In this document: in pieces, positions 14,084 to 57,679 of the stretch
How the letters are laid out: each line of letters starts with the position of its first letter
Numbering within the stretch: position 1 is the stretch's first letter
DNA from: Psammoneis japonica
Taxonomy: Eukaryota
Direction: 5' to 3'
Assembly (NCBI GenBank): GCA_008632985.1
Contig: QPGO01000021.1
Coordinates: 620,001 to 684,000, forward strand
Length of the DNA stretch: 64,000 nt
Program-made: the position numbers and the translations under genes
Notes under the pieces: generated by a model
Database searches by the model: none
Seen by the model: the letters and a program-made list of their open reading frames with translations, nothing else
What the model was told of the DNA's origin: nothing

Positions 14084-15698
14084 ATGCCACGCAACTGCAA
14101 TCAGTGTGGCCAGTCTCTTCCCAAATCGTCCTTTAGCACAAACCAGTGGAAAAAGAGAAGAAAGAGACAACGGCGAACCTGCTTCGCGGTGCAAAAGCTG
14201 CGTGGCTGGCGACAACAACCAAGCGAGTCACACAAATCAAAGCACCGATTTTCTAGTTTCTGAGTTTGGAGACATTCGAATTTCTCTTGACATTGACGGG
14301 CTTTCTGTCGGCACCGAATCGGATGACTGCCCCAAGGAAGACTCCGACGACGATCATGAAGATGATTGTTCATCTTTGAGTGACATGGACACCGAAGAGC
14401 TGAACCGAGGCACGCTGAAACATTGCTGTAGAGATCTCGAATGCATCGAGATGGGAACAGAAATGTTGGATCCAGAAGAAGACTTTGTGGAAATCCCACA
14501 CCTCAAGAAACAGCAGCGGCATGTGTGGCGCATCTTCGAGAGGAGATCCTTGAAGAAATGCGTGTGAGCGCCGTTGTGAAGGAATGGGAAGAGACGTGTT
14601 ACACTGACCCAAGTAAGATCAACATTGATGGTGACAACTTGGTGTGTCCCGTGTGTGATGAGAAACTGCCGCTAGATGGAGAGCCGCATGATCCATCTGG
14701 GGCAGAGTCGACAGATGGCGAACACGATCCAGAACCTCACAAGTCCAACCGTTTTCTGTGCTGTGGAACGCGTTTCTGTGCTTCACATGTTGGAACCCTA
14801 ATGTCAAGGACATGCCCAGTCTGCAATGAAGATGTCTGTTTTTCAGACAAAGACAGGCGCGACAGACTTTTCTTTTTTGCAAAGGAGAAAAAGAAGAGCT
14901 GGGCTCAGCACTTTGTTGCTGAAGGCTGCAATGGGAACACTGTAGCATTTCAGAAGAAGAATGCAAAGCAGATAATTCACTGGGCACAAATGGCAGCTGA
15001 TGCTTGGAATGCAGGCGTGCTGATGCTCATGTCCACAGCGTCTTTCCTTGAGTTTCCAGAGAGCTGCAGATTGGTGCGGCGAGTCATTTGCAATCATGCA
15101 TTGCGCCAAAGCCTGCCTGCAGAGGAATGTGAAGGCAGAGGCAATGTGACACTTTACCATTGCAACTGAAGTTGCGGCCTGAGACATCAAGTGTTCAGAG
15201 GCCTGCTTTCGAATCGGTGAAATGTTGGAACAGGAAGAATCAACTCCTCCAGAGCATCTCCTTCACCTGCATGAGCAAGGCTCAATGCTGTACAATGGTG
15301 GCAAAAATGGGTTTCCCATGGCACAGTTCAAATTTTCTGAACTGCTCTGCAAAATCAGCAATGAAAGACATGGGGCGCACAATCTTCCCGGTCTTAGTCC
15401 GCTGCCGAAAATGCTGCACTGGGCAAAAAAGTCGGCGCCAAAGTGCGTGGAAGGACGCAAATTCTTGGCGTCCACTGAGGCTTCCATTTCAAAGGAATGC
15501 ATGGTGTGTGAACATTCTCTGTCTGTCAACAAGAAAAAGGGTGGCAGGAAGAAGCAGAAGAAGCTCTTTCCATGCAAGCGCTGTGGAGCTGCTTGCTTTT
15601 GCAGCGAGAAGTGCCGCGCGCGTCTGGATGAAACAGGGCATCTGGAAGATTGCCCTGTCAAAAGGGACAACTTGCGGATGCCCTTCTGTGGCATTTGA
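14084..15698 (+). pseudogene. Decayed gene: N-terminal CxxC zinc finger (C..C...LP...FS.NQW, Stc1-like), RING-like Cys cluster, Sel1-like repeats, C-terminal MYND finger
   Basis: MPRNCNQCGQSLPKSSFSTNQWKK, then frameshifts; AQHFVAEGC...WAQMAAD and AQFKFSELL...WAKKSA resemble Sel1 repeats; CMVC...CKRCGAACFCSEKC...H..DC matches MYND; spread over at least 4 ORF fragments. Confidence 0.7.
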
Positions 15699-18180: not shown

Positions 18181-18285
18181 AGCATCCAGCCGCGCGTGCC
18201 GCGTGTTGTCGAGAGGCCTCCTCCGAATGACACCGATAGAGAGTCGCGTGCGCTCTCGAGCGATGGAGAGATAGACTCTCTCTAG

Positions 18286-19956: not shown

Positions 19957-20399
19957 ACTGTCCGATTGACCAATCCTTCTGACACATGCAGTCGAGGGTG
20001 GGTTGAGCGAGAGAGTGCTGGAGCTCGCTCGTAGTTTACTGCCAACTACCAAATCAATGTAGACGAATCAAAGCATGATGTACTGTGAGTTCATCGATTA
20101 CTTGACTGTTGTCTAGCTAGCTTTCTTCTACTGGCTGAATCAGGCATGGTGACAAGCAATCCATGTACGTTCTGACTTGGTGGTGGCAGTGGCGCGATGT
20201 AAACTATGTAAGGACGACACACCACTGCTCCTAGACATTCGCATTCAAACTAAAACTAAGGTGCCATTTATAGTACCCACTCCTTCGGGTTCATCGGGCA
20301 CTGAGTCAGACATCCAGGTCGCGGACTATGATCAAACATGTAATGTTGACTCTTGGTTCAGTCGCGGGTCCGACTCTTTTCTGCGAGAGATTTCCCGAA

Positions 20400-23330
20400 T
20401 CTTTCTTGTGAAACATCAATCACATCTCTTTACAACAGTTCAAGACGAGAACTGACAGAAGTCTCTTTTGGACATCAACTTGTTGGGGGTTCGAATTGCA
20501 AACAAAAGATCTCATCAAACAATTGTCGGAGTTCTCATTGGAATCATCAACAACTGCCAATGTTTGTTGAGGTTCCAACAGCTCTTCTTGTTTTGCAGAC
20601 ATTCTGATCCATTTCTTTGAAACACTCATCAGAGATCTTTTTGATTTTCATTCTGACATCATCTCAAAAAAAGTTGTTCCTTCGAAACTGCTTGAAGATT
20701 CTCCGCAACATCTGCGACACATTCGTCTTGTCACGGCTTTTGGAGAATTCAAGGCTTCAGCTGTTTTTTCTTTGCTTCCTTTGCTCTCATGATGGTTCTT
20801 GGGTGGTTGGTTGTTCTCTGCATTCAGAATTGTGCAGCCCAATTGGCCTCTGCAGGTCAACACTTTGCCGTTTGATGTGGCTGCCTTTTTCGAGGCACTT
20901 CCTCAGCACCGCGAAGAGGCTCATGCAACACTGCGTTCGCAAAACCCAGCTGATGGAGTGCCAACCTCTTGAGTGTCAGAACACATTGACTCTGGTGAGT
21001 GAGACAGTGATGCCCTTGCCTTGCTCTCTTGCTTGTCGTCCACTGCATGTCCAGGTAGAGTGGGTGCAAGCATTGCATCGGAGCAGATGCACTCCAGGAC
21101 CAGGTGGGACCTCGAGCTGCTGAACTGTGACATCAATGGTTTTTTGAATCGCATTGCATGTTGCGCACGTGCATTTCTGCGTGATTTTGGCAACATTTTG
21201 TGTCATTTTACAGCACAATTGTTGGGTGATCTATTCAGCAACTTTCAACATTTTTTCCTTCTGCGCCATTCTTGAATGTCTTGAGAATGGCATTGGGCAG
21301 GTGGATTGTCCAAAACTTTGAGCACTGCAGGAACAGGGACACATGCACCACAAACTTGGTCACATTTGTTTTGTGTCAAAGATGACCAAATGTGTGCATT
21401 GACCAGAGTGCAAACCACAGAGCTCACACACAGAATTCCATGGGGCAAATGTCAAAAAAAGTCCCACCAGGCTAGAGGGCTGGAACGCATCAGCACTTGT
21501 TGAGATTTGTGGGGGCTTCTTGTGGCGCAAGATCTCATGCCCTGTCACATTGGCTGGGCTGACTTTTGCCCGGGATGGTTTGTTCCAGCCAGGACTTGGT
21601 CAAGTTCTGTGTTCCACCAAACCCCTTCTCTCCCATCTGAAGATTTGGGTGGTCCTGTCATGTCTGCTGTTGCCATGACAATTGCAAGTGCTGGCGACCC
21701 TGTCCACCTTGCTGTTGGCCAGTGGAAATTCGTTGTTGACTCCTGGGCCATCAGCCAAGTTGCCTCATTGCCGGCATCCTGAGGAGCAACCTCCTCCCCC
21801 CAAGATGAAGTCAAGGATGACACACCTTCTGACCCGAATGCTCCCCCGACAGGTTCCAGCCCCAGGTGGAACTCCGTGTGACATTGAGCCCACATGGAAT
21901 TCTGCGTGCGAGCTCCACAGCAAATTCATCAAGTGATGAAAACACAAATGATTGCCAACAGAAAAAGAGGCAATTTTATGAATGCATCTCCTCCATCACA
22001 CTTGCAGCACATCAACAACAGTTTGCCCAGGCACATTCTGCAGACACCAAAAAATGTGCCCAGTGCATTTTCATTCTCGTGAATGCCGAAACTAGAAAGC
22101 CTTTGGCTTCGCAAAATGGGGAGCATGAAACAATTTTGTGGAATGTCACATGTGGCCATCTGCATGCATGACATGTGATGCAATCCAAAAAACTCTTGAT
22201 GTCATGGTGAAGCAGCATGAGGTGTCCCACCCAGAGCTGGAGCGTGCCCCCCTGAAGTGGGTGTGGCTGTTCCTCAAGAAGAGGACCCTGATGCACAGTT
22301 GTGTGGTGGACTCTCTGACTCGATCAACCTCTGTGGTTCCCACCCAGAATTGTTTGCTTCTTCACCACCTGCCATGGACTTGACTCTTGGATGTCTTCAA
22401 GCGAACTGCAACCACTTGTTGTGCACCACACCAACGAAATGGGCAGGGTCCTTTGAGAGGAAATGTGAAAAAATGCATGCCTCCTTCTTCACATCATGGC
22501 ATTGGTTTGCCATGCTGCTGGTGTCAACCCACTGGAGGGCTGTGGGGGAGCAGTTCAAGCACATCTTGTCACCAGGAATGCGGCTGTTCAATGCCGCGCC
22601 AAGTTTCACACAGAGCTGGCCACTGAGGATTGCGCTCTTGCATGACAAACTCTGGATGCCCCAGTGGATGCCACCACCACACACTTCATCTAGTGACCAT
22701 GCATGCACTCCATTCCAAGCTCTCAGCAATGTTCAGACGTGTTTTGTTTTCCGCAATGTGACAAATTCGAGTCATTGCCAGAGCTCGCCAGCCTGTGTCA
22801 TCTGTCAATGATGCTCTGAAAATTGAAAGCAGGAAAGCAACTCCTGAATCATTGGCACATTTGCCTGCCAATGAGGCTGTGCACTAAAAAAAACATGAAA
22901 ATGTGGGCCAAAATTCTCCTTCTCCTTGTGGCCACCAGGGAATGGGCTTTCTCTGCAGACAAAGAAAGGCGTTCTTGACTTGTTTCATGTGCGATCATGA
23001 TCAAGTCTTTTGTGCATGCACAGTCCAAGATCCAAGAGGGCTTCTGCAGGGTGTTCCCCGACTGCTGCCACTGGGACTCTGGCTGCTGTGCCAATGTCCC
23101 GCGCACCAGCCGCAAAGATCCATCATGGCATCCACAGCCACAAAAAAGCACGGCCCTCGTCAGAGTGAGTCACCATGATTTCGCCCCAAGCCAGCGAGGA
23201 ATTGGCAGCGACAAGGCAGCACATTTTCTCATTCACGCTGACAAAAGGAGGTTGTTGATTTGCCCTTCTCATGTGTTTGCTTCGCCATGGCTAGATGTTT
23301 TAATTGTTCATTTTTTGTGCAGCACTTCAA
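20400..23330. other. CpG/TpA-depleted tract 3, containing a decayed head-to-head paralogue pair
   Basis: Dinucleotide composition; inverted homology between ~21060-21445 and ~21890-22250. Confidence 0.8.
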
Positions 23331-30701: not shown

Positions 30702-32081
30702 ATGAGTGAAACTACCAAAAGAGAAAAACTAACTATTCGTTCTTCAACGATAGTCATACTTACGATATTTGTCATTGGAACAGCGCACCTGTCACTTTTG
30801 ATGTTGAGATTGGGATTGACTGAATACAGTGTTCGTTCTCGAACCTACAATGAAAGGGCTTATATCCAAGAAACAACAAACGTATCGTCTTATGATGAAG
30901 TGACGACGTCTCCGAGTACGATTGACTTGCAGAAACTGTATTCAGGACTTGACAACAGGAAAGCAAACTTATGGGACAACTCAACTGCGATTCCTCAATG
31001 GATGAAAGAATACCTTCAATGGCACCACGAGCAAATGATTGATCTTAATAGCGAAAACTGGCAAGACAAAAGGTTTCTTGTGATGCAGTGCCTAAAGGAA
31101 GACAAACATTGTGGTGGGACGTCGGATCGAATCCAACCAATGCCTTCAATGCTGCAGTTGGCGAATCAAACCAACCGCATTCTCTTGATCCTATGGAATC
31201 GCCCTTACAAACTTGAAAACTTCTTGTTGCCACCACAAGGTGGACTCGACTGGCGGGTTCCTGAATGGCTTGAGCCTCTGCTGCCCACTACTAGTCGACT
31301 CGTTGTTAGCAGAATGAAAGGTGTTCTGGGTATAGACCGGCCGGTGGTAATGACTCGCATTCAACAGTCCAATGGCGGGGCAGACTGGTTTGACGAACCT
31401 AGCCGTGGAACCAATGCAGTATTTGACAGCGTCTATCATGACTTGTGGAGAGTTCTTTTTACCCCAGTCCCACAACTTGCTGCTGAGATTCAAAACAGCA
31501 TGAAAAACATGAACTTGAATGCCGGTCAATACACATCGGCACACGTGCGCGCCTTGTACCTCGCAAACTCTGGGGCCTTGAGAAGGAGCAACTCGTCGCT
31601 GCTTCAAATAAATGAACTGACTACCAACGCTCTCAACTGTGCATCGCGCCTTAATCCTAGCAGTCCCATTTACTTTGCCTCGGATTCCAAGGACGCCGCG
31701 ACTTTTGCTCAGCAGTACGGAGCGAAGAAGTCCAGGAAGATTGCAACGATACAAGTAAACGAAAATCCAATTCATTTAGACGAGGACGATCAATGGCAGA
31801 AACGACACCCGTCAGAATATTATGCGACCTTTCGAGATTTGTATCTCCTCGGATTTGGTAATTGTGCAACTTATGGTGTAGGCGCCTACGGACTTTGGGG
31901 GCTACGCATAAGTGGCAACTATTCATGTGGACAGCGACACGATAGCACTATATGTCAATGGACAGATGGCGAATCCGAACAGTCCTCCCCATACCAACCC
32001 GTGAAATTTGAGCTACCAATGGGAATGAGCATAGAAGGAACGGCTGCCAAGGACGCAGTGGTTGAAAGCTCTCCGAAATGA
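30702..32081 (+). CDS. Type II membrane fucosyltransferase-like glycosyltransferase (different subfamily from 2364/8782)
   Basis: N-terminal TM; CGGTSDRI, SAHVRA, YFASD and FRDLYLL motifs; intact 459-aa ORF. Confidence 0.7.
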   Translation: MSETTKREKLTIRSSTIVILTIFVIGTAHLSLLMLRLGLTEYSVRSRTYNERAYIQETTNVSSYDEVTTSPSTIDLQKLYSGLDNRKANLWDNSTAIPQWMKEYLQWHHEQMIDLNSENWQDKRFLVMQCLKEDKHCGGTSDRIQPMPSMLQLANQTNRILLILWNRPYKLENFLLPPQGGLDWRVPEWLEPLLPTTSRLVVSRMKGVLGIDRPVVMTRIQQSNGGADWFDEPSRGTNAVFDSVYHDLWRVLFTPVPQLAAEIQNSMKNMNLNAGQYTSAHVRALYLANSGALRRSNSSLLQINELTTNALNCASRLNPSSPIYFASDSKDAATFAQQYGAKKSRKIATIQVNENPIHLDEDDQWQKRHPSEYYATFRDLYLLGFGNCATYGVGAYGLWGLRISGNYSCGQRHDSTICQWTDGESEQSSPYQPVKFELPMGMSIEGTAAKDAVVESSPK

Positions 32082-33300
32082 ATATGGCAATTGATTCTTC
32101 GGCGGCTTCCCCATTTATCAGTGTACAACAGGAGAGTCACAACATGTTTCTTGCAGTCATATGCTAGTCGATACAGCGTTGCGCCTTGCACACGAGTAAA
32201 CCTGTCGCAAAATTCGAGCAACCTTGTCGTGTTTAGAAACATCGTATCCAACGTACCGTGCACCCGCTTTTTCTATTCGGGTTAGCTTTTTTGAAGACTC
32301 TTGTGAAAGAATGACAGATGACTTCAAATGGCATTTAAAGCTGTGGCGGATTTATTAACAAAGCCTGCAAACAAATGGGGCATCTGGGAGGGAGAAATGA
32401 AATGTTCAAAGCATCTCCCCCACATTCACCGCCTGCTTCGGATTTTTTGGTCATGTTTTGTCTGTACTGTAAGACCCGCTTTGCTTCTGTGTGCTTTTTG
32501 TCTGATCCTATTTTTACGAAACCTAGCAAGGGCCGAGCTTCCCCAGCAGCTGTTGACATCCTGTGGACAGCAGCACAATCCGCGAGCAGGCAAGGTGAAA
32601 ATGCCATCGCCGGCCATGTTGACGTTACCAAGCATTCCTTGTCGAGTGTTTCGAAGGGTCGTCAAACGTTGTCGTTCTTTCAAATGGCAGATCCACACTG
32701 CAAGATTTAGCAAGCAGCTCCAATTGCTGACAAAGACCATCAAGATTGTGTTCAATGAGCATTTTTCTTGACAGGAGGATGTCATTGAAATTGTCATTCA
32801 TTGCCCATTGCACTGCACTGGGTTCCAGATCTGAGCAAATGCCACCTGTCCAGCATGGCTCTCACTTGTTCAGAGTTCCAGCTGGGTGGATGATCATGCA
32901 AGGCAGGTGTGCAAATGAACATCTTCCACACCCTGATCTCATTTCAGCAGTGCCACTGATGCTCCTTGCACTCTTCCAACTGTCGACTGAATTCAGATGG
33001 AGGCACCCTGCATCTTTTGCAGAGATTTTCATCACTCTCCCTTTTTTCCAACAACTTGTGCTGTCAAACATGTTGTGCTTTGGCAACTTTGCCTTCACAA
33101 TCATCTCAAAGGCATCATTGCACAAGTTCTCCATTGACTGGAGAGATGGTCAAGGAACAAATCATGCACCATTGACAAAAGATGCAGCGCAGCTCTTGCA
33201 CTTGTCTGCAGAGCAGGCAATTTGGCCACCATGCAACCTGGTGGTGAGAAACTTGCACAGCGCAGATTGGGAAAGCTTTTTGTGTCATTGGCAACAGGGT
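31290..33300 (+). repeat. Segmental duplication, copy A (GT 3' half + intergenic DNA + lipase 3' end); copy B at ~41183-43050
   Basis: ACTAGTCGACTCGTTGT..AGCAGAATGAAAGGTGTTCT occurs at ~31290 and ~41183; colinear similarity continues into the lipase 3' end. Confidence 0.9.
32640..33300 (-). pseudogene. Hypermutated 3' fragment of the class-3 lipase paralogue
   Basis: QWAMNDNFNDILLSRKMLIEHNLD and MENLCNDAFEMIVKAKLPKH align with QWAMNEDFNDILLSRKMLVEHDPD and MENLRNDVLEMIARIKVPKH of the intact gene; reading frame broken. Confidence 0.9.
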
Positions 33301-36300
33301 CGTTGCTTCTCAACTGCTTGGTGTCCTTTTTCTCTCAGAAAAATCAGGTGAGATGGAATTTTTTTGCTGTTTTTGGAGGGAAGACTTTGTTCTTTGCATT
33401 CATTGCTGACAGTGTGGGGTGGTTGCTTGAAATTTCCTGTTCCTTGTTTTGACACTGTGAAGTCTGGCCAATCTGGTGGCTCATTGGGAGGGGGGGGGGG
33501 CATGTTCCAGCCCCAGGTGTGGCGACGGTTGCAGCCACTTGTCAAATCTGACTTTTTGCACATTTTTGAGCACTGGACATTTTGCAATCACCTGTGTGAG
33601 AGCTTGTGCTCACAGCAGCAGCATGGGCACAAACAACAGCATGGGGTGCAATTTTTTGCAAGAAAAAACATGTCAGCACACAGCTGTGTTGACCACCCAT
33701 GCCCACCATCGCGCTCATTGCATCTTGTTGGACGAGACCCATTCCCAGAATTTTGACACAAAAACAACACAGCAGCCCAAGTTGAGTGTGGTGCTTTGAC
33801 TGCACAACTTGAAACCACAGCTTGTGCTCAGAAAAGGGCCAAAGCAACCCATGTGAGACAGTGCTCCTGTGCTTTTTGCACTGAATCACATGCAAAGCAA
33901 ACTGCACATCTTCAGCAAGTTGCAGAGCAACAAAAACAATGATGCAGCACACCAACTTGAGTGCAAAAGATTTGACGAGGCACTGAAACACTTGCAAAGC
34001 TCTCAACCATGACAGAGTTCAGTTGCCCCAATGCCAGCATGGCTGGCTGGGCATGGCATCTCAACTGCAGCTTTTGTGCTTTGTTTTGGGGCCTTGGCAC
34101 CAATGTCTCTCTGTCTTTCTTTTTGCAATGTGTTTCAAAGGAAACAGCAGGTTGCTCCTCAAGAGATTTTCCAAGGACTCTTGCACTGATGGCAGTGTCC
34201 ACTGCAAAAAGTGCATGGTGCACCACTGTGATTTTTTCACTGAAAAGCAATGATGATGTGAGCTGTGCCACAAAAGCTTTAAAAAAAAAGTGGGCGCGCA
34301 CACCCTTGACTTTGTGCATGGGGAAACAGACAAATCACTTTCTACAAAGCAGTCTTTTGGCACAAAAAATGCAACACAAGTGTGTGCTGGTGATGTGGTG
34401 GTGGGTGTGTGCTTGAGTTGTGATTTTGGAGAAAGCAACAGCTGGACAAGGAATTTGTGGAAAACCCAAATGGGCGGCACACTTCTTGATGAGCTTTGGT
34501 CTTTTTTTGGACCACCTGGCATGGAGATGGAGAACAAGCCAGGAGGGGTTGGCACAGACCATTTCTCACACATGGACAAATCCATGAAGTCTTGATTTTT
34601 GCATGTGTGAGGTGTGCTTTTTTAAGGGCAGCAACCCTGTGCACAAGTTGAGAGCTCCATGCACCAGAGCTCTCAAGATTTCAGGATTTTGGAGTTTGGT
34701 GAGGATCATCTTTGAATGGTGCTGGGAGAGGCAAGCTGCACAGCCTCTCTTTGCAAACACACACTTTTGCAGCAACTTGTGCACTTGTCACCACAGCAGA
34801 CCAACTGTCCTGAAGCAAGACTTGGACAGATCACAAAAGTTCCCTGCACCCCACCTGCTCCTGAGCTTCAAGATCTGGAACAACCCACTGGACAGCAACA
34901 AGGTTGCTCAGCACCATTTTTGCCCACCTGCGTGTCTGCAAGGCAACATGAGAGCCAACCACAAGAGCTGAAGTGAAGGCACAATTTCTTGTCCTTACTT
35001 TTTGACTCAGAGCAGGGAACATGCTAAAAAATGATGGGAGGGAAAGGCCCAGGTTCATTGTGGAACCCCACAAATGCACGGAGACCTCCTCCTGCAGAGA
35101 TCTGTGTGCATTTTTGCATGAGCTGGCGCTGAAAACATTTGGCCCACACATGCCAAACTGGCACAGTTTTTGTTGCCAAATTTTGAAAATGTGCCTGATT
35201 TGCAAGACAGCTCTGGTGCAAAATGCAAACGAGAATCTGTGCTTTTCAGGTTGCATGTTCCCGCACATTTGCGGGGCTCCACAATCCACAACAAAGGTGC
35301 TGCAAAGACACCAAACAACAATGCACTTCCTCAGCACCATTTTCTCATTCCTGCATGTCCACAAGACAACATGAGAGTCAAGTGTGCAAGAGCCAAAGTG
35401 AAAGCACAATGAGCGTTCTTGCCTTTTGACTCCTTTGGCAGAGGGAACATGCTGAAAAATGATGGGAGGAAGAGGTCATCTTCTTTTTTGCATCTTGTGA
35501 GCACTCTGGCCATTTGGTTTTGTCACAGGAAGCAAACAACTCCAAATGGTCTGAGCTCTTCTTGTTTGCCCAGTGTGCCCACAGCTCCTCAACCACATTG
35601 ACCACCTGTCACTCCAGCTGTGCTGAGACAACATGACACCATTTTGACATGCTTCACCCTGCTGGCTGCTCCAGCCTTTTTTTGCCTCACGCAACATTGT
35701 GCATTGGTGCTGGGAGCTGCAATCTTCTTTTGGGTGTTGTCCAAGTCCACATGCAAAGATGCGCAGAAAGCTTGCAAAGATGTGCTGCCCCTGTGCCTGG
35801 GATCTTGATGACAAAATTGACCATGTGCACAAACAGCAGACCTCTGCCTTTCTTGCCTTTTTGGCTCACCTGGAACAAGCTGGAGAGTTGTGACAGTTGT
35901 GAGAAAGTTCAGAGCACCCTCAAACTGTGTGAATCAATGTTGCTGACCAGAGCCACTGCAACTGCAGCTCACTGGGTTGTTGTCACTTGAGCGTTTCTGT
36001 TGCTTCTGTTTGGTCATCATTTTTCCACATGACTTGGCTCTGGCATCATTGGCCAGCATCATCCATTGGAAAGTGGACATTTGCACTGTTGTGTCTTTGA
36101 CATCAGAGCAAACTTGCCAAGCCAGATCAGCGCACTTGGCTTTTGAAAGCCCGTCACTGGCTCCATTTTGGATCTTTGGCACAGTTGATTGTGCAACCAC
36201 AAAACCCTGTGATGCTGTGCCAATGGCCAGCTTTTTCTTCTGATGCAATCTCCAATCTGATGTCATTTGGCAGGGCCACCCTCATCAATGTGTTTTCCAA

Positions 36301-36900
36301 AGGCGCTGGTTGGCACTCCAAGAACTTCAGCAAGTGCCTCTGTTGCTTGTCCAAGCTTTTGCAGTTGCGCTGCAGCCTTTCTTGCCAAGCCACCCACTCA
36401 TGGCCTTTGTCATGATTGACAGAGATGAGGCTCCCTTGGGCTGGCTTGCCAAGCTTCTTTGCTGCAACAGACGCTCCGCTTTTGTTGCCATCTGCTGGCA
36501 CCTTGTGCTTTTTTGCCAGCACTGGCAACTTCAGTGCTGCCTTGATCGTTCTTGGCGGCTGCAGCAATCTTTTTGCTGGACCTGCTGCTCTCTTTTTCAT
36601 CATGGGTGTGAAGAAAATGCCTTGCCACTTCCTGGCAGAGCTGCTGGCAGCTTTTTTTGCAAACTGCGACATCTTCTCTTTTTCTTGGGCAACCACATCA
36701 CCTCTTCTTCTTTTTGAGAAGAGCAAGCCAGTGATGGAGGAGAGCTTTACTTTCTTTGCATTTTCTTGTGTTTTGGAGGGCTTCAAAAGTGGCAACTGGT
36801 GTCCCACGTAGAGATCAGGATTGTTTCCATGTCGAAATGCTTTTCGAGGGACAAAAATGACAACAACATGGCATTTCGGAGCACAATCATTGTTTTCTGG
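32680..36900. other. CpG/TpA-depleted tract 4 (lipase remnant, decayed minus-strand gene starting near 36930, internal repeat)
   Basis: Dinucleotide composition; direct comparison with the intact duplicate. Confidence 0.9.
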
Positions 36901-37191
36901 CCAGCGCGATGAGATCTTTTGATCTTTCATTTATGTACAGCTCGTCAAAAGAGCGGGAAAATGGAACATTGAATTTTTTCAGGTCTGGATTTTTTAGCAA
37001 GCGTTGGGGTGGACCGGATGCGGATCAAATCTGGCGCGAAAAAAGATCTTGCGCTTCCTTATTCTGAATTCTGTCGGTCTTAGCTTTTTCTGGATTGTTC
37101 TACAACGAAAAACCAATGCTGCAACATGAAAGAGGAGAGCGAAGTCGCTTTCAGTTCGGCTTGAGACGTTGTTTGATCTAAAGCGAGCAAC

Positions 37192-40100
37192 ATGGGCAAC
37201 AGCGCTAGCACGGTCGCTGAGGCGGCGACAAGGCCTCTTATGATAAACACTTGCGAAAAGGAGCCAGGATACGTCGACGTGAATAAGGGCCACGTCCTTG
37301 CAGACGTGCGTCGGCTTATGAAAGAAGAATTCGACGCTGACATGCTTCCAAAAGGCGAGTATTACTTTTGCCGTGACGGCACGCGTGTATCTTCAAAGCA
37401 AGAAAGGCATCTTTCATGCTGGAATCTGTGTGAGAGTGAAATTAGCATTCACGAGAAAAAACGGAAACCGGACTTGAGTAGCTCTGAAGAGACGGCCTTA
37501 CCGATTAAGAAAGCGCGTCAAGAAGAAGGAGGAGGAGGCGATTCCAAGAAGCCGTTTGCTGGGAACATGCAACTTGGAGAGTCTTACCATACACTCCAGA
37601 ACGATTTTTCTCAGTCCAAGGTCGGTCAGGATATAGAAAAAGTCGAGCATGCGGAAAAACACAGCCATGGTGGCGTGGCTCGAGTAAGCTCTGCTGCCAC
37701 TTTTGTTGAGACCATGTACGATGAAGAGAAGGAAGCCGGTAAAGAGGCCGCCGTAACTTTGCTGTCCAAGAATCACCAAAGCGATGGCGGCCCGATTCTG
37801 AAGAGTGATCGTCAAGAACTACGCGTCTTGAAGAAGAGCCATGACAAAGAAGAATGCCTCAAGAAGACTGTAACTATGCCAGTGACTCCGGAAAAAGCTA
37901 GAGGCTTGCAAGTTGAAGACCCACTGGCTGCATCTCCGACAGGTATCGGGCGTCTCGGCGACGAAGAGATTGAGGTTTGTGAAGCTGAATCGGAATACGA
38001 AGCTCACAAATTGAACGATCAAGCTTTGGAGAAGAGTCGCACTGTGCTCAGGGATATTGATGCGATGCTTAAGGAGAATCCACTTTTTTGTTCAGAAACT
38101 CGTCGACAAGAGTGGTATAACGAGATTGCTCAAGACCTCGCAAAGTCGGCACCGCAGACGACGATTGGCGTACTGGGAAACACAGGCACAGGAAAGTCGA
38201 GCATGCTGAATGCTTTGATTCAAGAATCTGCCGTTTTGCCTACTTCTGGTTCTCGTGGCTGCACTGCTGCGGTTGTGGAACTCCGCTTTAACTCAGACTT
38301 GTCTGGTACAATCGAGGAGCAAGTGCCGGTGTACAAGGGTGAAGTTGAGTTTATCAAGCTTGGTGAATGGCTGGACGAGCTTCGTCTTCTGATTGATGAA
38401 TGTAGTAATCTTGATGAGGAGAAAATTCACGCTCATATTCCGAATGGGCAGGAGGATCCCGAAGCTGCTGCTGCTTGGAACAAAATTGAACAAGTGTACG
38501 GGAGAGGAATAATGTCGCGGTATTCTCGAATGAGCAGCGAAGAAGTATATCAGGAACTTTCAAGTGATCAGCGAGTGTGCGAGCTTCTCGCTTCTCCCGA
38601 TGGAAACGAGAATACTCACAACTCCATCATCGTGGAAAATGGTCAGGTTAACCAGGTTACGGCCAATGCTCTTTTACAAGACTTTGGTAAGATAAGTCGC
38701 CCCCTGCGCAGAAAAAAGTCAAGGTGGGCGCACGATTTTCGATCCACAATTAACGAGTACGTCTACCGAAAGGGTAACGGAAGCCAGCCACAGACTTGGC
38801 CATTGATTCGGAAGGTTGTTCTACACGGACCATGGCCGGTTCTATCCACTGGCGCTTGTCTTGTCGACCTTCCCGGTGTGCGTGACGCAAATGTGGCCAG
38901 AGCCAGAGTCTCGGAACAGTACCTGCAGAACTGTAGTCAAATCTGGATCGTGGCGCCAATCAAAAGGGCGGTGGATGACGGTACCGCAAAGAAGCTTTTG
39001 GGTGAACAGTTCAAACGACGGCTGCTGATGGATGGTCAGTACGGGAATGTTGCATTCATCTGCACTCAAACAGATGATTGCGAAGCCACGGAGACAATGC
39101 GAGACCACAAAGACGTGGCATTGCGCAAGCCCGGACGATGGGAGAAAATGACGGAGCTTTCCGACAAAATCGCCAACAAAGAAAAGGACCTTTCAGAATT
39201 ATTCTCCCATGAGGAGTACTTGGAAGCTGAATTCAAAGATGCGAAACAACATTGGGAGGGCGCCAAGCAGGAGCTCAAGGAACTTGAAAAAAATAAAGCT
39301 ACTGATATTGTCGACATCAACGCAACCCGTGAAGAGAAGAAATGTTGGATCCAGCATTTTGAGAATGTTGCCCGTGATACCTTGAACGAGCTTGAAGCAT
39401 GGAAAGAGGCCAATCGTGACAAACAGCTTAGTTTGCGAGGTACGTCACGTAGACTGCAGCTGCACCTCAAGACTCTGTGCGCGGAGGTGCGAAATGAGTA
39501 CAGCAAGGAATGCTTGCAGGACGATTTCCGCGCCGGTTTGGAAGAGCTGACTCGTAGAGAAGATGAAGGTGGTGCCAATGATGTCGACGACACGCCTCCT
39601 ATTCCTGGAGATTACGAAATGGATGTCTACTGCATCAGTGCCAATGACTACCTCAAGATACAGGGTATCAAGCCAACGACTGATGGCCCCGCAAACACGT
39701 TCTCATCACCGACGGATACTCAAATCCCGTCACTTCGTAAGTTTGTACATGACACCACAGCTAGACAACGAGCGATGTTCACGGAAGATTTCGTGTCGAA
39801 GTCGAGCGACATATTAAATCGAGTTAAGCTTGTTGTTACATACAATAAAGATCTTCCATGTGGGCAAGCATCGCGAAACCTTAAGGCTGCATTCGAAAAG
39901 GAGATGAAGTTGTTGAAGGATAAAGTGAAGTCCGCTGATACTAGATTCAGAGCGAAGGCTGAGATGAAGGTTCGATCCACACTGCGCCCTGCTATCGAGG
40001 CGGGTGCAGTGAAAGGCAACGCAGCCGCGATGGCCACGGTTTCCTCGTGGGGCTCAAAGAAGAGGAGAAGCTGCGATAATAGAAGCCCTAACAACAATGG

Positions 40101-40881
40101 GCTCTACTGGTCGACCTATTTTACAACAGCACGTCACGACGGAGTCTATACTTCTGAATCAGCTGGTGAAGTGGATCTGAATCAAGAGCTTTGTGATCCC
40201 ATGGAGAAGGAGTTCAGTGCGGATTGGCAACGTATCATGGACTCGTCACTGAGAGTTCTTCTGGAAGAATGCGAGGCTGAAATTCTAACTACATGTGCAT
40301 CTGTCGACAAATCCTTGTCGTTAGAATTCGACAAAGCCGGTTTGTCCCGCGATAGAATCACAAAGATGATAAACACTGCCAGCCGTAGCTGCAAGACATC
40401 TGCCAAAGATTCTTTTCAGTCAATGAAAGAGACCGCTGCTTCCACTCAGCGAACTCTCAATCGATCGTTGTTGCGAAATATACAGTCCCACATGAAGAGC
40501 GGCTACACTGCCACCATCAATGTCCCTGGTGGCTCAGGCAAGTTTGACCGCATGAAAACCGCTTTGAGCAAACACGCCGCCTCAAGTGCCCAATCCATGT
40601 TCACAAGTTCAACCGTGGAGCTGCTACAAGGAATTGGTGATTTGATTGATGAGCTCTGTTCGGAAATAAATGAAACTGGGAAGGATCTACGGAGGACCTT
40701 TGAAAGTGTATACTCCATCGCCTGGGACAACCGAAGTGAAATGCGAGCGTGTCGTAACAAACTCCTACCTGATCTCAACCGACTTGCCGAGATGCAGCGA
40801 GATGCGATGCAGTTGCTTGGAATTGAACGTGAGGACATGGAACTTGACGTCATTGCTGTTGACTGTGAGAAACCCGGTTGA
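37192..40881 (+). CDS. Large dynamin-superfamily GTPase, nuclear GTPase SLIP-GC/NUGGC-like
   Basis: G1 GNTGTGKSS, LPTSG...CTA, WPLIRKV, G3 LVDLPG, G4-like TQTD, ISANDY and TQIP.LR motifs; long helical C-terminus; extreme 3' end uncertain. Confidence 0.8.
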   Translation: MGNSASTVAEAATRPLMINTCEKEPGYVDVNKGHVLADVRRLMKEEFDADMLPKGEYYFCRDGTRVSSKQERHLSCWNLCESEISIHEKKRKPDLSSSEETALPIKKARQEEGGGGDSKKPFAGNMQLGESYHTLQNDFSQSKVGQDIEKVEHAEKHSHGGVARVSSAATFVETMYDEEKEAGKEAAVTLLSKNHQSDGGPILKSDRQELRVLKKSHDKEECLKKTVTMPVTPEKARGLQVEDPLAASPTGIGRLGDEEIEVCEAESEYEAHKLNDQALEKSRTVLRDIDAMLKENPLFCSETRRQEWYNEIAQDLAKSAPQTTIGVLGNTGTGKSSMLNALIQESAVLPTSGSRGCTAAVVELRFNSDLSGTIEEQVPVYKGEVEFIKLGEWLDELRLLIDECSNLDEEKIHAHIPNGQEDPEAAAAWNKIEQVYGRGIMSRYSRMSSEEVYQELSSDQRVCELLASPDGNENTHNSIIVENGQVNQVTANALLQDFGKISRPLRRKKSRWAHDFRSTINEYVYRKGNGSQPQTWPLIRKVVLHGPWPVLSTGACLVDLPGVRDANVARARVSEQYLQNCSQIWIVAPIKRAVDDGTAKKLLGEQFKRRLLMDGQYGNVAFICTQTDDCEATETMRDHKDVALRKPGRWEKMTELSDKIANKEKDLSELFSHEEYLEAEFKDAKQHWEGAKQELKELEKNKATDIVDINATREEKKCWIQHFENVARDTLNELEAWKEANRDKQLSLRGTSRRLQLHLKTLCAEVRNEYSKECLQDDFRAGLEELTRREDEGGANDVDDTPPIPGDYEMDVYCISANDYLKIQGIKPTTDGPANTFSSPTDTQIPSLRKFVHDTTARQRAMFTEDFVSKSSDILNRVKLVVTYNKDLPCGQASRNLKAAFEKEMKLLKDKVKSADTRFRAKAEMKVRSTLRPAIEAGAVKGNAAAMATVSSWGSKKRRSCDNRSPNNNGLYWSTYFTTARHDGVYTSESAGEVDLNQELCDPMEKEFSADWQRIMDSSLRVLLEECEAEILTTCASVDKSLSLEFDKAGLSRDRITKMINTASRSCKTSAKDSFQSMKETAASTQRTLNRSLLRNIQSHMKSGYTATINVPGGSGKFDRMKTALSKHAASSAQSMFTSSTVELLQGIGDLIDELCSEINETGKDLRRTFESVYSIAWDNRSEMRACRNKLLPDLNRLAEMQRDAMQLLGIEREDMELDVIAVDCEKPG

Positions 40882-41182
40882 CAAAGATGTTTGACGAAGC
40901 TGCCACTAAAGGGCTTGTGATTGATTCGTGCGAATCTGACGAAGATTCTGACCCACTGTAGATCGCAAGCCTGCGGCACGACCAGCTGTTGCCCCGGCCA
41001 GGATAGCTGTAAATAAGATGGAACCGCGCAGAGCCTCCATCCCCCACCCCGCTTTCCGGTGGTGAGTCTCGTTCTGAGGAACTTCCTTTTGTGGGCTCTC
41101 CTTCGTCGCCATGGTCTGCTGATTCCTATGAAGAATATTGATAAGGTAGCCTTCCGTTCAAATACTGTAGATGAAACCATTT

Positions 41183-41780
41183 ACTAGTCGACTCGTTGTA
41201 AGCAGAATGAAAGGTGTTCTAAGTATAGTCCGACCGCCCGGTATTAATGACTCGCAGTCAATAGTGTCCAATGGCGGGGCAGACTGCTTTGATGAACCTA
41301 GCCGTGGAACCAATGCAGTATTTGACAGCGTCTATCACGACTTGCGGAGAGTTCTTTTTACTACAGTCCCTCAACTTGCGACGGAGATGCAACTTTTGCT
41401 CAGCAGTACGGAGCGAAGAAGTCCAGGAACATTGCGACGATACAAGTAGACGAGAATCCAATTCATTTACATAGACAAGGATGATCAGTGGAAGAAACGA
41501 CACCCTCTGAATGTTATGCGACCTTTCGAGATTTGTATCTCCTCGGATTTGGAAATTCCGCAACTTATGGTGTAGGCGCCTACGGTGAGATGGGGCTACG
41601 CATGAGTAGCAACTATTCATGTGGAGAGCGACACGACTGCGCTCTATGTCATTGGAAAGACGGCGAATCCGAGCAGTCCTCTCCTCTCCATGCCAACCCG
41701 TGAAATTTAAGCTACAAATGGGAATGAGCATAGAAGGTACGGTTGGCAAAGCCACAGTGGTTGAAAGCTCTCCGAAATGA
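41183..41780 (+). pseudogene. 5'-truncated, internally deleted copy of the 30702-32081 glycosyltransferase
   Basis: TSRLVVSRMKGVL, FDEPSRGTNAVFDSVYHDL and YATFRDLYLLGFGN are retained; frameshifts and a deletion of ~210 bp. Confidence 0.9.
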
Positions 41781-42404
41781 CTATTGAACTTGATTCTTTG
41801 GCGGCTTTCCCCTTTGTTAACGTTCAACAGGAGAGTCACAACATGATTCTTGTAGTCGTATGCTAGCCGATACAGCATTGCCCCTTGTACACGAGTAAAC
41901 CTGTCGCGAAATTTGAGCAACCTTGTGGTGTTTGCATCGCATCCAACATACCGTGAACCCTCTTTCTATTCAGTTTGGCTTTTGAAGACTCTTGTGAAAG
42001 AATAGACTAACAGGAAACCCCAAGCGGTATTAAAGGCTATGCTCGACGCAACGCGCTGAATAGCGGATACATTTACGAAGCCTGCAAACAAGTGAGGGAG
42101 GGAGGGAGAAAGAAATGAAAGAATCATAGTATCTCCCCCCTATTTACAGCCAGCTTCTTCGGGATTTTTCATCATGTTATGTCTCCAAGACCCGCTTTGC
42201 TTCGTTTTGTTTGATCCTACGAAACCCAGCATGGCCGAGATTCCCCAGCAGCTGTTGACATCCTGTAGACAGCAGCACAATCCGGGAGTAGGCAAGGTGC
42301 AAATACGATATCGCCGGTGGTGCAAAAGTGCTTCAAATGAACTCGTTTCATGTTTCCAAGTGAATGCCACTCAATTGATATTGCCGAGTATTCATTACTG
42401 AGTG

Positions 42405-44869
42405 TTATGAAGTGTCGTCAAACGTTGTTGTCCTTGCAAACGGCGGATCCAGACCGTAAGATTTGGCAAGCAGCTCCAGTCGCCGACAAAGAACATCAGG
42501 ATCGTGTTCAACCAGCATTTTTCTCGATAGAAGGATGTCATTGAAATCTTCATTCATTGCCCATTGCGCTGTACAGGGCTCCGGATCTGAGCACATGCCC
42601 CCTGTCCAGCATGATCCTTGCTTCGGAGTTCTTATCAGGTGGATAATCTTGCCGGGCGGATACAAACGAATATCTTCCATGTCCCGATCACGTTTTAGTT
42701 GCTGCTGATACTCCTTGTACTCTTCCAACTGTCGACTGAATTCAGAAGATGGTATGCTGTGTCTTTTATGGAGAATGTCGTCGTTATCCCGTTTCTTCCG
42801 ACAACTCGTGTCGAACACTTCGTGCTTTGGTACCTTTATTCTCGCAATCATCTCAAGGACATCGTTACGCAAGTTTTCCATTGACTGGAGGGACAGTCGA
42901 GGAACAAAATCTGTGTCATTGACAAAACATGTAGTGTAGCTCTTGCACTGCAGAGCTGATCTCTCGGACACCACGCAACCTGGAGGTGAGAAACTTATGC
43001 AGCGCAGATTGGGGAAGCTGCTTCGGATCATTAGCGATAGGACCACAGCGCACCCTGCCCCCAATGAGTGACCAACTGTACGAAGTGTGTACTCAGGGTA
43101 TTTGGGCGAATCCCCCAACAATAGCTCTTCCAATATTCGATGGCTTTTCGAATGGAGAAGGCGAACAAATTTGGTAAGAACCAAAATCTGTGCAATTGTA
43201 GAACCCATTCACAAATACGAGTTTCGGCGTACCTCTGCAAATCTGAGTAGATCCATTCGACACAAGCTAGAATCCCTGCATGGCAATACTCGCCGTCTCC
43301 GTCAAAACCGCAACGTTTACCCAAGTCATCCATAGGTTCAGGGCGGATGCTCACGTCCGCCGCCAAGTCGTCAAGGGAGAATGTTCCTCTCACCGCAAGG
43401 ACGACGGATTTCCACTCATGGTCGATAGCAATGCAGTATGGCGTAACTGCAAAGCCCTCTCGAAACTGAGCGTACGCTATATTCGATTCGTCAAAGCCAC
43501 ACCTCTTTAGCAAACTTGTTTCATTCCAGCCACAAACGTTGTCACCGACAATGTTGTGTTTTTGACCACAGCATCGTCCATGCGAAGACGATTGCAGCTG
43601 ATTACGAAGCCAACTGCCGACAAAAACACAATGGGCAGTGCAGATGTGACTCTTAAAGTACATCATCCACCCATAAATAGCTGTGGCAACTCGAATGAAT
43701 CGAGCTCCCTCACAGATTGCGAATTGGTCCTGTTCATTGTCCGCTGAAAGCACGCTTCTCACAATAGGTTCGTATTCAACGTGGGAGCCGTCGCGACGCA
43801 TGTGGTATTCCAGGTTCATTGTCGGAGGAACCTCCGTGTGAAGGTTGGAAACCTCGTCTTCCTTCTTCTTTGTATTAGCTTCAGTCTCGCCCTTCAAATC
43901 TCGTACAATCTCCATCGCTTCATTGGCCATCTCCTTATCACTCTCTCTTAAGAGTCCATTTTCTTCGTCAGAAATCATATCTTGATTGCACTTACTCATG
44001 AGAAGCATCTCCCGACATTCTTTTTGTCGCTGCTCCTGCACACGCAACAGCATCATGAGACCAACCATGACGTCGGTGGCAGTAACGTCAAGCTTTCCGC
44101 CATCGTCAAAGAAATCCGCTAACGCCAAGGAAACATCTGTGAAATTACCCGTGCCGCTCTCACGTCCTCCACAGAGACAGCACGTCACCAACGATGAGCA
44201 TGCACAGCAGAAATGGCATGCAATCTTCCACTTGGTCTGGGAAGACAATACTTGTCCAGTCAAGGAACGAACGTGGTTGCGAGGCCGCAATTTTTTGAGT
44301 AATACCCAAGCCGCAAAAATACCAGAAAGAATCAACTCGACCATATGAGTAACCCCCAACGCGAGCAATATCCTGTAAAACCGGTTGTAATCCTCGCACT
44401 CCGATTCAAACTCCAATTCCTCCTCCTCGTTATCCAAGCAGTCGCAAAATTCCCTTACACTCGATTGAAGCAAAAGAACCAAAACAAACACAAACACCCG
44501 TAAAAGAAGCACGGGAATAAGTTTGATCTTGCAGAGAGGGACAAGTCTTGAACGTTTTTCAGGTTCGGTCGGAGTCCCACGAATCGAATTTCTCCAGATT
44601 GCAAGTTCCAAAAGAAAACTGGTGATTACCAACACGAGACACCCACCCCAATACACATAGAAGAGAGCAATAAAGCTATTAGCTGTGTTGCTGAGATTGT
44701 CTTGTTTTCGACATTTCTCAATGTCCTTCTCGTTTACATCTTGGGAAAGCAACAGCAGAACAAGCAGAGCAAACTGAAGTATCCGAAAAAGCATCATAAG
44801 TATGCAGTGCAATCGCAAATCATCTCCTGCCACGGGAGTTCGGAGGCCAAACAGGATAAGTGCCGGCAT
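42405..44869 (-). CDS. Class-3 lipase, sn1-diacylglycerol lipase (DAGL)-like, with N-terminal TM helices; intron 43144-43232
   Basis: Starts MPALILFG; ~4 TM helices; VLAVRGTFS, HAGIL, GHSLG nucleophile, FSPPG, DFVPRLS, LYPPGKIIH; GT-AG intron joins LQ-S-HRIL. Confidence 0.9.
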
Positions 44870-45349
44870 TATGCTGACACTTATGAGTGAGAGAAGCAAT
44901 CGTAACTACAAGAAGGGCAGTCTATTCCAGCGACAGCGACGGCAACATCACCATTGTCTTCGCGTCTTCTATATATTTTATTGCTTTCGCCGAATTTTTG
45001 TGCATCGCGCGCGCCTACCCAGAATAAGTGCTGCACGTGTGAGGAGATGATGCGGCAAACGAAAAGATGAGATCACGAATTATTTCTTCGTTGGGTAATT
45101 CAAGTCCACTTCCCTAGTTAGTTGGGCTACAGCTAGAGCTGATAGGTACAGCATTGCCCCTTCTAAGAGTGCAGTTCGAAATTCGAGCTACCAGTGGAAT
45201 GTTACATAATTGGAGTCGACAAGCTCTGCATATCCGACTTCCTCTTCTATGCACTCTAGAGGGCATTTTTGAAGATGTCTTGAGCGAATACCAGATAAGC
45301 TCAAACTCAAAAAAGAAGTGAGGGTTGCTGCAACGAGTAGGCTAAAGAA

Positions 45350-46315
45350 TTACTTCGGTCGACGACGCATTTCAAAAATCGGAGCATAGTCTTCTTCTTG
45401 GCCTTTTTCTTTCCGTTTTGAGGCAAATCCACGTTTCGTATCCAAACATAATTGTGCTTCCTCTACGTTGTCATACAAGGCAATTACAGTCGATTCGCTT
45501 TTGTGAGTTTCCACAATCTCAAACCAGAATCCTTCTGATGATGATGAGGATTCTCCATCGCCGTCGGTTGAATCTGCAGCTAGCGAGGAGGACTGGAGCA
45601 AGGTTACATCGTTGCTTTCTCTGGTAGAATCGTGTGGATCACTTGATACGTGGAGATTTTCCGTGTTTGTCGAAGGGTTGACCTCAGCTTCTGCCACTGA
45701 TGCACCTAAGTCTTTGTTCTCCAAACCTATCTCCGTCCTCTGATGATCCTTCATTTCTTGTTGTGCTTTCAATTCTTCTAGCTCTTCTTTTTCTTGCAGA
45801 TCATCAAGGATAGTCTTCAAGGTATCATGGTCATCAGTTGCTTCAATGTCGTGTTTTAAGGCTAGGCTGGCCTGAATTGGAGTTAATCGCTTGATCTGAT
45901 CAGTCTCGTACCCTAGTCTCTCTACCAACTCGGTTCGTTGTGTCGCTGTAATCATGAAGGCTACTCGTGCTGTTTTTGGCCCTTTTTGCTTTGATATTGT
46001 GACATCAGTTGATTCCTGTGAATTTATGTTCCTGCTGCTGTGATGCTTGAAGAATGTAAAGTTCTTTTCCTTTTCCAAATACCCCAAAATTCCGTAGTAT
46101 CTCACCAGCCCGATTTGCTTGTGAAAGTTGAGAAGAGACACGGCGACATTGTTGCTTTCCCGTTGTGCTTGTAACATTACAACTGGGAGTAAGTCATCTT
46201 TTCGAACACTTCTCGTCCGTATCAAGGCAGATCCCAATTGATAACTCTCCCATCCAAACCTGCGCGTCCTGGTCACGAATTGGCGCAAGGACGGCGGCAC
46301 CGGTACTTTCATCAT
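45350..46315 (-). CDS. Hypothetical protein
   Basis: 321-aa ORF with FMIT...R.EL..LGY..DQI..LTP motif; normal composition. Confidence 0.7.
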   Translation of the reverse strand: MMKVPVPPSLRQFVTRTRRFGWESYQLGSALIRTRSVRKDDLLPVVMLQAQRESNNVAVSLLNFHKQIGLVRYYGILGYLEKEKNFTFFKHHSSRNINSQESTDVTISKQKGPKTARVAFMITATQRTELVERLGYETDQIKRLTPIQASLALKHDIEATDDHDTLKTILDDLQEKEELEELKAQQEMKDHQRTEIGLENKDLGASVAEAEVNPSTNTENLHVSSDPHDSTRESNDVTLLQSSSLAADSTDGDGESSSSSEGFWFEIVETHKSESTVIALYDNVEEAQLCLDTKRGFASKRKEKGQEEDYAPIFEMRRRPK

Positions 46316-46599
46316 TTTTTTCTACAATCTCAGGCGATACCTTACGACGTTCTTTTTAACATCTCGCTCTGATCTTATGGTGCGCTATTGTGCTGTCACT
46401 TTGAAACCTTAGGACATGTACAATGACAACGAGAATGACTGATGTCATCGCGCGCTGCATGTCCTCGAGCGACAGTAATCTGGAAATCTCGTCATCCCGT
46501 CGTCATCGTTGTTTTCGTGGTTTCGTCGAGTGATGCGCGACTCACTCGACTTCTCTTTGCGCACATAAACCCGCAGTGAGCTCAAATCCAGTTTGAACG

Positions 46600-57589: not shown

Positions 57590-57679
57590 GGTTGAAATGA
57601 CTCGCTTACAAAAAATACTTCTGCAAGTTACAAAGCACTCTGAACTCTACTGATTTTTCACGAGCTCGAATTGACTCAC

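Follow-up and report, generated by a model that had tools for sequence, protein, structure and literature searches.

Results

TA-poor and CG-poor blocks alternate with genes

The window analyzed here comprises 64,000 nucleotides of the diatom Psammoneis japonica (assembly GCA_008632985.1, contig QPGO01000021.1, positions 620,001 to 684,000 of the forward strand). Its long open reading frames (ORFs) and all genes that Pfam recognizes, an intact lipase gene among them, sit between six blocks of 1.4 to 5.5 kb in which TA and, to differing degrees, CG dinucleotides have given way to TG and CA. A partial duplicate of the lipase gene enters one of these blocks. The first-pass annotation had described, at 32680-33300 within this duplicate, a tract in which the CG and TA dinucleotides of the intact copy read, with few exceptions, TG or CA. 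The tract is real, and all five example strings quoted for it were found in place, but the phenomenon is not confined there: the tract forms the left-hand end of a block of 4.1 kb, and the window has six blocks in all, which total 22,840 b, or 36% of its length.

We delimited the blocks, which are defined by TA, with a 500-bp scan of the window and change-point fits on CG and TA density. D1 (1-1370) runs off the start of the window; its CG and TA are nearly gone and its TG/CA is doubled, with the CG change point at 1175 and that of TA at 1370. D2 (14135-18235) is low in TA from 14135, and in CG only from ~14775, with CG fully low from ~15650. D3 (20345-23290) has ~0.3 TA versus 1.8 to 2.0 CG per 100 bp, so that its loss of CG is incomplete. 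D4 (32690-36805) holds the lipase tract and has a sharp left edge, the last dense CG lying at 32673 and a single fitted change point, 32675, separating CG densities of 5.5 and 0.8 per 100 bp. D5 (46685-51540) is near saturation, with 0.2 to 0.4 CG and 0.2 to 0.3 TA per 100 bp, as is D6 (57865-63395), whose interior contains an assembly gap of 206 N at 60125-60330.

Pooled block cores (18,899 b) differ enormously from non-block DNA (40,485 b) in these dinucleotides: CG stands at 7.2 versus 54.8 per kb and TA at 2.9 versus 40.3 per kb, and the ratios of observed to expected frequency are 0.13 versus 0.99 for CG, 0.04 versus 0.57 for TA and 1.85 versus 1.16 for TG/CA. Their G+C content, however, is the same (0.476 versus 0.470), because the losses at CG and the gains at TA cancel. 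The 500-bp windows separate accordingly: 44 of 128 have an observed/expected TA of at most 0.2, and all others have at least 0.20 for TA and at least 0.58 for CG.

A lipase duplicate records the changes at a block edge

The intact lipase gene (42405-44905, minus strand), our reference for the ancestral state, encodes a Lipase_3 domain with a GHSLGAG motif. Its 89-nt GT..AG intron (43144-43232) is bridged by one read-derived contig of run X2, which joins 43143 to 43233 with CT..AC ends. The nearest relatives of its product are diatom sn1-specific diacylglycerol lipases (Ditylum, Cylindrotheca, and Bacillariaceae) at 42 to 46% identity; the window is therefore diatom nuclear DNA, and the host group named by the first-pass annotation was correct.

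The duplicate at 31289-33277 aligns by blastn with 41182-43019 at 76% identity over 1678 columns plus one piece at 88%. The block edge divides it into two parts. The hypermutated remnant proper (32690-33277, minus strand) corresponds to the last exon of a class-3 (sn1-specific diacylglycerol) lipase gene and carries five in-frame stops. The part outside the block (31289-32689, minus strand), a paralogue of 41182-42450, has ordinary divergence, with TA loss climbing in the last 400 bp before the boundary. About 200 b of this side (31494-31697) are absent from the other copy (at 41389) and have normal CG and TA content.

We compared the two parts with the intact copy over 586 aligned bases inside the block (32690-33290) and 1161 outside it (31289-32685). 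Identity was 78.3% inside, with 99 transitions and 28 transversions, versus 86.2% outside, with 92 transitions and 68 transversions. Inside the block, the 28 CG of the intact copy have become CA in 13 cases, TG in 12 and AA in 1, with 2 kept, and its 20 TA have become CA in 10 cases, TG in 8 and something else in 2, with none kept. Outside, 42 of 58 CG and 31 of 61 TA survive (Fisher tests, inside versus outside: p = 6e-9 for CG and p = 1e-5 for TA). Near-complete conversion to TG/CA thus holds for 25 of 28 CG and 18 of 20 TA, counts that exceed the minimum of 15 and 11 previously made by eye.

The TG/CA state is derived and specific to TpA and CpG

To polarize the changes, we used 13 outgroup diatom lipases, aligned with the intact lipase protein, to score the 72 codons at which the two copies differ in amino acid. 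The outgroups agree with the intact copy at 53 codons and with the remnant at 6, leaving 13 undecided; therefore, TG/CA is the derived state. The converse polarity, which the first-pass annotation had allowed for, is contradicted by this 53:6 split and by the stops in the remnant.

With the intact copy taken as ancestral, we calculated transitions per site in each dinucleotide context, where a palindromic dinucleotide saturates at 0.5. Inside the block, both TpA (A>G) and CpG (C>T) stand at 0.47, close to that ceiling, versus 0.19 and 0.11, respectively, outside. No other context approaches these values: A>G changes stand at 0.05 for ApA, 0.13 for CpA and 0.14 for GpA inside the block, C>T changes at 0.11 for CpA, 0.07 for CpC and 0.13 for CpT, and all six at 0.03 to 0.10 outside. 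The enrichment of A>G/T>C change at TpA, on which the earlier reading had been staked, therefore survives polarization (0.47 versus 0.05 to 0.14 at ApA, CpA and GpA). Error-prone repair by pol-eta, which that reading had floated and which favors WA (A or T followed by A), can be rejected, as ApA transitions are not raised (4/79 inside the block versus 7/180 outside). Because TA is its own complement, the attacked base may be either the A or the T.

Position in a block, not repetition, sets what is mutated

The D4 boundary at ~32690 falls within the duplicated lipase segment. A 600-bp direct repeat that flanks D6 follows the block edges at both of its copies: the left copy (57540-58145) is converted only in its right part, from ~57970, inside the block, and the right copy (63066-63710) only in its left part, up to ~63330, again inside the block. 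Repeated sequence outside the blocks is spared. CG and TA are normal in the intact lipase copy and in five NodZ-like repeats of ~1.1 kb at 77 to 89% identity, and the lipase intron and, beyond the block, the non-coding stretches of the duplicate retain both dinucleotides. A transition-blind seed search in the purine/pyrimidine alphabet found no further similarity of the blocks to each other or to the rest of the window.

Together, the boundary within the duplicate, the pattern of the D6 repeat and the spared repeats exclude a trigger of the kind that drives, in fungi, repeat-induced point mutation (RIP). Because host sequence is converted only where it lies in a block, a composition inherited from foreign DNA is likewise excluded, at least for the block margins. 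Conversion is governed by position in a domain and not by repetition.

Four of the NodZ-like (fucosyltransferase) units lie in tandem in one 1699-aa open frame at 8782-13881 (minus strand), with a period of ~1.19 kb and 77 to 89% DNA identity. The fifth, a diverged copy at 2364-3767 (minus strand), is 6 kb from the tandem four; none of the five is hypermutated.

Both strands are affected alike

The converted sites of the lipase tract resolve to TG and CA in a ratio of 20:23, in line with the earlier claim that changes go in both directions and that the process acts on both strands, and in none of the seven block core segments do the numbers of TG and CA differ (p > 0.26). Neither data set, tract or core segments, shows any sign of a transcription-strand or replication-strand bias of TG versus CA. 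The 43 events of the tract fall into 23 runs (runs test, P = 0.63); with same-strand runs not in excess, we reject clusters left by a processive single-strand deaminase of the APOBEC or ADAR type.

Sites that were already TG or CA in the intact copy have also changed. Nine of 90 such sites inside the tract carry the double change between TG and CA, versus 0 of 157 outside (p = 9e-5), as is expected if newly arising CG or TA are converted again. Roughly, ~23 TG plus CA per 100 b against 0.1 to 0.4 residual CG or TA suggests that these dinucleotides are destroyed tens of times faster than they are created.

A short direct repeat of ~145 bp within D4 (34904-35047 and 35327-35475) has copies that differ by seven TG/CA double mismatches, as expected if ancestral CG or TA resolved oppositely after the duplication.

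The blocks are present in read-derived contigs

We built contigs from exact 31-letter words of the reads of a public run, X1. They cover all of 31001-51000 at a word depth of ~64, blocks and genes alike, and one 8375-b piece spans D4 with only three differences from the window. That contigs form across the blocks makes misreading unlikely, as per-strand miscalls of palindromic sites would be expected to clash every ~10 bases. Contigs of run X2 lie only on 31001-32479 and 37757-46422, and their lack of cover over the blocks says nothing about expression.

Over 31001-51000, the X1 contigs differ from the window at eight single bases, seven of them within D4 and D5 (~8.4 of the 20 kb). All seven swap CG/TA and TG/CA: two are CG/CA, two TG/CG and one TA/CA, and the last two fall on adjacent bases as TG/CA. 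These in-block differences look allelic and of the hypermutation type, as though the process were recent or still running.

TA loss and CG loss are separable

The losses of the two dinucleotides are nested. Observed/expected CG is at most 0.3 in 33 of the 128 500-bp windows, all of them among the 44 with TA of at most 0.2; the remaining 11 low-TA windows keep CG above 0.3, and none of the 128 combines low CG with normal TA. At nine of 11 block edges the TA change point lies beyond that of CG, by 55 to 640 b. The left shoulder of D4 can be followed with polarized changes: TA has been lost at 12 of 20 sites in the adjacent outside 400 b versus 8 of 41 further out (p = 0.003), whereas loss of CG there (5/16 versus 9/43 further out) is not significant, and inside the block 25 of 28 CG are gone. 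D2 and D3 keep 1.6 to 2.0 CG versus only 0.3 TA per 100 b.

What survives also differs. Surviving TA in the blocks (n = 108) has a symmetrized 5' neighbor of T in 56% of cases versus 22% elsewhere and of A in 8% versus 28%; surviving CG is preceded by G in 35% versus 23% and by T in 22% versus 31%. TA loss is thus the wider, more graded and more complete of the two, whereas the loss of CG is slower and has sharp limits. The difference points to two activities and fits the earlier suggestion that a second activity accompanies the loss of CG. A sharp CG edge beside a graded TA edge is what would be expected were the loss of CG tied to a methylation domain.

The left part of D2 (14135-15650) is a zone depleted in TA only (its left 640 bp or more), where CG still stands at 2 to 7 per 100 b; possibly this is a gene that is undergoing silencing. 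Read-through translation of ~15400-15580 has, by eye, a Cys/His pattern like that of a MYND zinc finger; Pfam made no such assignment.

Block contents and neighboring genes

None of the 138 block ORFs of at least 82 aa has a Pfam match above the curated cut-off, although nine ORFs have sub-threshold matches at E values of 0.002 to 0.009, and six-frame read-through of the six blocks (36 translations) yielded no Pfam family at E of 0.01 or below. The ORF at 14432-15166 returned no homologue, nor did that at 36157-36930 among 1.84 billion representatives. No tRNA, Rfam family or satellite was found at the block boundaries. A period-3 signal, sought in the purine/pyrimidine alphabet, was for the most part weak in the blocks but also weak over the intact lipase exon, which makes it uninformative. 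An inverted repeat in D3 aligned too poorly for use.

Two neighbors of the blocks deserve mention. The gene at 55379-57646 (minus strand), which adjoins D6, combines a CHAT protease domain with a STAND/AAA_16 NTPase in an architecture like that of conflict systems, and a second copy of its start and promoter region (57540-58145) lies at the opposite edge of D6. Directly right of D4 lies a gene for a 1234-aa dynamin-family GTPase with DUF7605 (37177-40881, plus strand).

Discussion

Two transition processes probably act on domains

We consider it probable that the blocks are kilobase-scale nuclear domains in which two context-specific transition processes, one at TpA and one at CpG, change the DNA in place. 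The domains would lie between genes, probably in silenced chromatin. One process would turn TpA into TpG or CpA by changing one of the two base pairs from A:T to G:C; this process would be the faster and wider of the two, fading over a few hundred bases at the domain edges. The other would turn CpG into TpG or CpA in a sharply bounded core nested within the TA-depleted zone, and this is the classic result of 5-methylcytosine (5mC) deamination in CG-methylated DNA. Both processes would hit each site on either strand, at random and independently. Acting over a long time and converting each new CG and TA in turn, they would leave DNA almost free of both, with TG/CA at ~1.85-fold and G+C the same. 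Any sequence within a domain would be affected, fragments of host genes included, and repeats outside would be spared. What the data show is the signature together with its polarity, positional dependence, strand symmetry, nesting of CG loss and occurrence in read-derived contigs. The links to chromatin and methylation are inferred; the TpA enzyme could be a DNA-acting adenine deaminase or a thymine-modifying enzyme, and a role in defense against transposons or viruses is suggested by precedent in other organisms.

Several points weigh against this interpretation. The polarized evidence comes from one paralogue pair with 43 informative events, and run X1 may be the source data of the assembly itself and so not fully independent of it. 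The offset between TA and CG change points fails at two of the 11 edges, both of them those of D4. The argument from flanking bases is weakened because the TA and CG still present may have arisen anew instead of having resisted conversion. With respect to defense, the only identifiable sequence inside the blocks is host-derived, namely, the lipase exon and the D6 edge repeat. Finally, 78 of 253 1-kb windows here have an observed/expected TA below 0.2 together with TG/CA above 1.5, and no such 1-kb window occurs in 80 metagenome loci encoding related lipases (585,732 b), of which only the top ~15, a small sample, look diatom-like. The trait may be lineage-specific. The same metagenome loci double as a specificity control for the dinucleotide criterion, and as a sample they are too small to deny the trait to other diatoms.

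The alternative that comes nearest to this interpretation, although we regard it as unlikely, is that one enzyme system performs both halves: a TET/JBP-type dioxygenase, or another recruited enzyme, would act on 5mC at CpG and on thymine at TpA, and the oxidized bases (5-hydroxymethylcytosine and 5-formylcytosine; 5-hydroxymethyluracil [5hmU] and 5-formyluracil) would mispair or be misrepaired, turning C into T at CpG and T into C at TpA. 5-Formyluracil mispairs with G. Both targets are palindromic pyrimidine-purine (YpR) steps, both end as TG/CA in the same domains, and the nesting of CG loss in TA loss would follow because CG must first be methylated and would trail TA. Members of the TET/JBP family are described as oxidizing 5mC or thymidine in chromosomal DNA (PMC11572971), and older work, as recounted in PMC11071213, placed 5hmU preferentially in TA and TC contexts; however, the latter account reports that the TA preference was not recovered in Breviolum minutum. 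The chlorarachniophyte Bigelowiella natans changes TpA only, CpG going unmentioned in the accessible text of the preprint that describes it (Mettrop et al., bioRxiv 10.64898/2026.01.13.699255). Within the window, moreover, the edges differ, graded for TA and sharp for CG, and a 5' T has opposite effects, marking the TA sites that survive most (56% versus 22%) and the CG sites that survive least (22% versus 31%). We therefore prefer two processes to one.

The remaining explanations fit the data far less well. Heavily modified bases might have been misread by the platform or polisher, with CG and TA written as TG and CA. Modified motifs give systematic consensus errors on some platforms, and the even split between TG and CA would suit strand-specific miscalls. 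Such an artifact is nonetheless very unlikely given the equal depth of the X1 contigs in blocks and genes, the 8375-b piece with its three differences, and the indels and transversions that the remnant also carries relative to its paralogue, as an old copy should. It is similarly hard to believe that the blocks are inserted viral or transposon DNA whose avoidance of CpG and UpA evolved elsewhere. Suppression of both is known, according to PMC3829696, in RNA viruses and some other viruses, and the block interiors have no recognizable origin; yet the lipase exon and the D6 edge repeats change over to TG/CA precisely at their entry into a block, an observed/expected TA of 0.04 is extreme, the copies of the 145-bp repeat in D4 differ by TG versus CA, and the apparently allelic differences are of the same type. 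If CG and TA were instead hypermutable throughout the genome and kept in genes by purifying selection, the blocks would be the neutral equilibrium, a reading favored by the low TA outside the blocks as well (0.57) and by the top transition rate of TpA there (0.19). We give it very little credence, because CG and TA are normal in the 89-nt lipase intron, 42 of 58 CG survive in those non-coding and degenerate stretches of the duplicate that lie outside the block, the CG change points are abrupt (as at 32675), and the raised TA rate outside is concentrated in the 400 bp beside the block. A process like fungal RIP, in which duplicated DNA is detected and mutated, is scarcely credible at all. The lipase tract is indeed duplicated sequence, and a repeat stands on either side of D6, but only one copy of the lipase pair is mutated and, in it as in the D6 repeat, only the in-block part; the five NodZ-like repeats at 77 to 89% identity are untouched; the blocks, with transitions disregarded, still resemble neither each other nor anything else in the window; and RIP creates the very TpA that is destroyed here.

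On the preferred reading of two transition processes, target choice would be decided by position in a domain and not by foreignness or repetition, and the coupling to CpG decay would tie the TpA process to DNA methylation and heterochromatin. A third of the window is unannotatable and possibly contains transposon or viral relics hidden from normal searches; a dinucleotide scan finds such domains. A natural A:T to G:C activity at a defined chromosomal dinucleotide would also be of interest for base editing.

Comparison with known systems

The CpG half has an obvious counterpart in the decay of CpG by 5mC deamination in methylated transposons and heterochromatin, DNMT5-type methylation being described for Phaeodactylum tricornutum and Cryptococcus neoformans (PMC12344493 and PMC9998398); in such decay CpG likewise goes to TpG or CpA on both strands in sharply bounded domains outside active genes. 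In Phaeodactylum, methylation is reported to be limited to transposable elements and tied to heterochromatin marks (PMC12344493). Alone, however, such decay lowers G+C and spares TpA, whereas here CG loss is the lesser and slower partner of the TpA process. Fungal RIP, as set out in PMC2621366, resembles our blocks in using dinucleotide-specific transitions that inactivate non-genic DNA and skew its dinucleotides. RIP, though, requires repeats and strikes each of the two copies, its main change is from C to T at CpA, and it produces TpA while reducing G+C; in our case only sequence within a domain is hit, repeats being spared, CpA is enriched, TpA is destroyed (0.04) and G+C is unmoved (0.476 versus 0.470).

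Adenosine deaminases offer a closer chemical parallel to the TpA half. In ADAR hyper-editing, and in DNA editing by ADAT2 as cited in the B. natans preprint (10.64898/2026.01.13.699255), A comes to be read as G, preferentially next to a 5' U or T; the changes here differ in being genomic, strand-symmetric and free of strand-coordinated clusters. Dinoflagellates, from a related supergroup, have a TET/JBP homologue that is described as making 5hmU, which marks and silences transposons (PMC11572971). The parallel lies in a thymine-directed modification tied to silenced DNA, for which the older work gives a TA context, but the account of 5hmU presents it as an epigenetic mark and reports no mutational footprint.

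The closest system by far is that of B. natans. According to the preprint (bioRxiv 10.64898/2026.01.13.699255), 231 of 302 nuclear mutations in mutation-accumulation lines fell in two integrated viral regions, where all GC-biased mutations were at TpA and gave TpG or CpA at ~1000-fold the background rate; 124 clusters, each a few kb long, poor in TpA and rich in CpA plus TpG, are scattered genome-wide, and its authors propose a defense with an ADAT2 homologue as candidate. The two systems are alike in turning TpA into TpG or CpA and in being confined to discrete regions of an otherwise normal genome. They differ in host (a diatom and thus a stramenopile here, a chlorarachniophyte and thus a member of Rhizaria there), in extent (an observed/expected TA of 0.04, or saturation, here versus 0.45 reported for the giant-virus region there) and in target, as fragments of host genes are hit by position here and integrated giant-virus and virophage DNA there. 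The B. natans rate comes from measurement in real time; the evidence here comes from the comparison of sequences. The nested loss of CpG sets the diatom apart as well, the accessible text of the preprint mentioning neither CpG nor diatoms.

The earlier belief that no described system combines the two signatures must therefore be amended: the TpA half has since been reported, so far only once, in that 2026 preprint, and the coupling to CpG does not appear in its accessible text. Our search of the literature outside subscription journals found no report of TpA hypermutation, or of combined TpA and CpG hypermutation, in diatoms, nor of either at saturation. The TpA half of the signature in P. japonica is the same as that of B. 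natans; what is new is the diatom host, the saturation, the positional control and the nested CpG decay. The TpA process is then either ancient within the SAR supergroup (stramenopiles, alveolates and Rhizaria) or evolved more than once. That diatoms and chlorarachniophytes share an old, chromatin-targeted editing defense, in which a single enzyme system erases both self-complementary YpR steps, is in our judgment doubtful. If true, it would constitute a new class of eukaryotic genome defense that permanently scrambles the DNA of silent chromatin at constant G+C, and its enzyme, for example, a TET/JBP-type 5-methylpyrimidine oxidase or a double-stranded DNA deaminase, might serve as a base editor. 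Comparing genomes that have the signature with those that do not offers a route to that enzyme.

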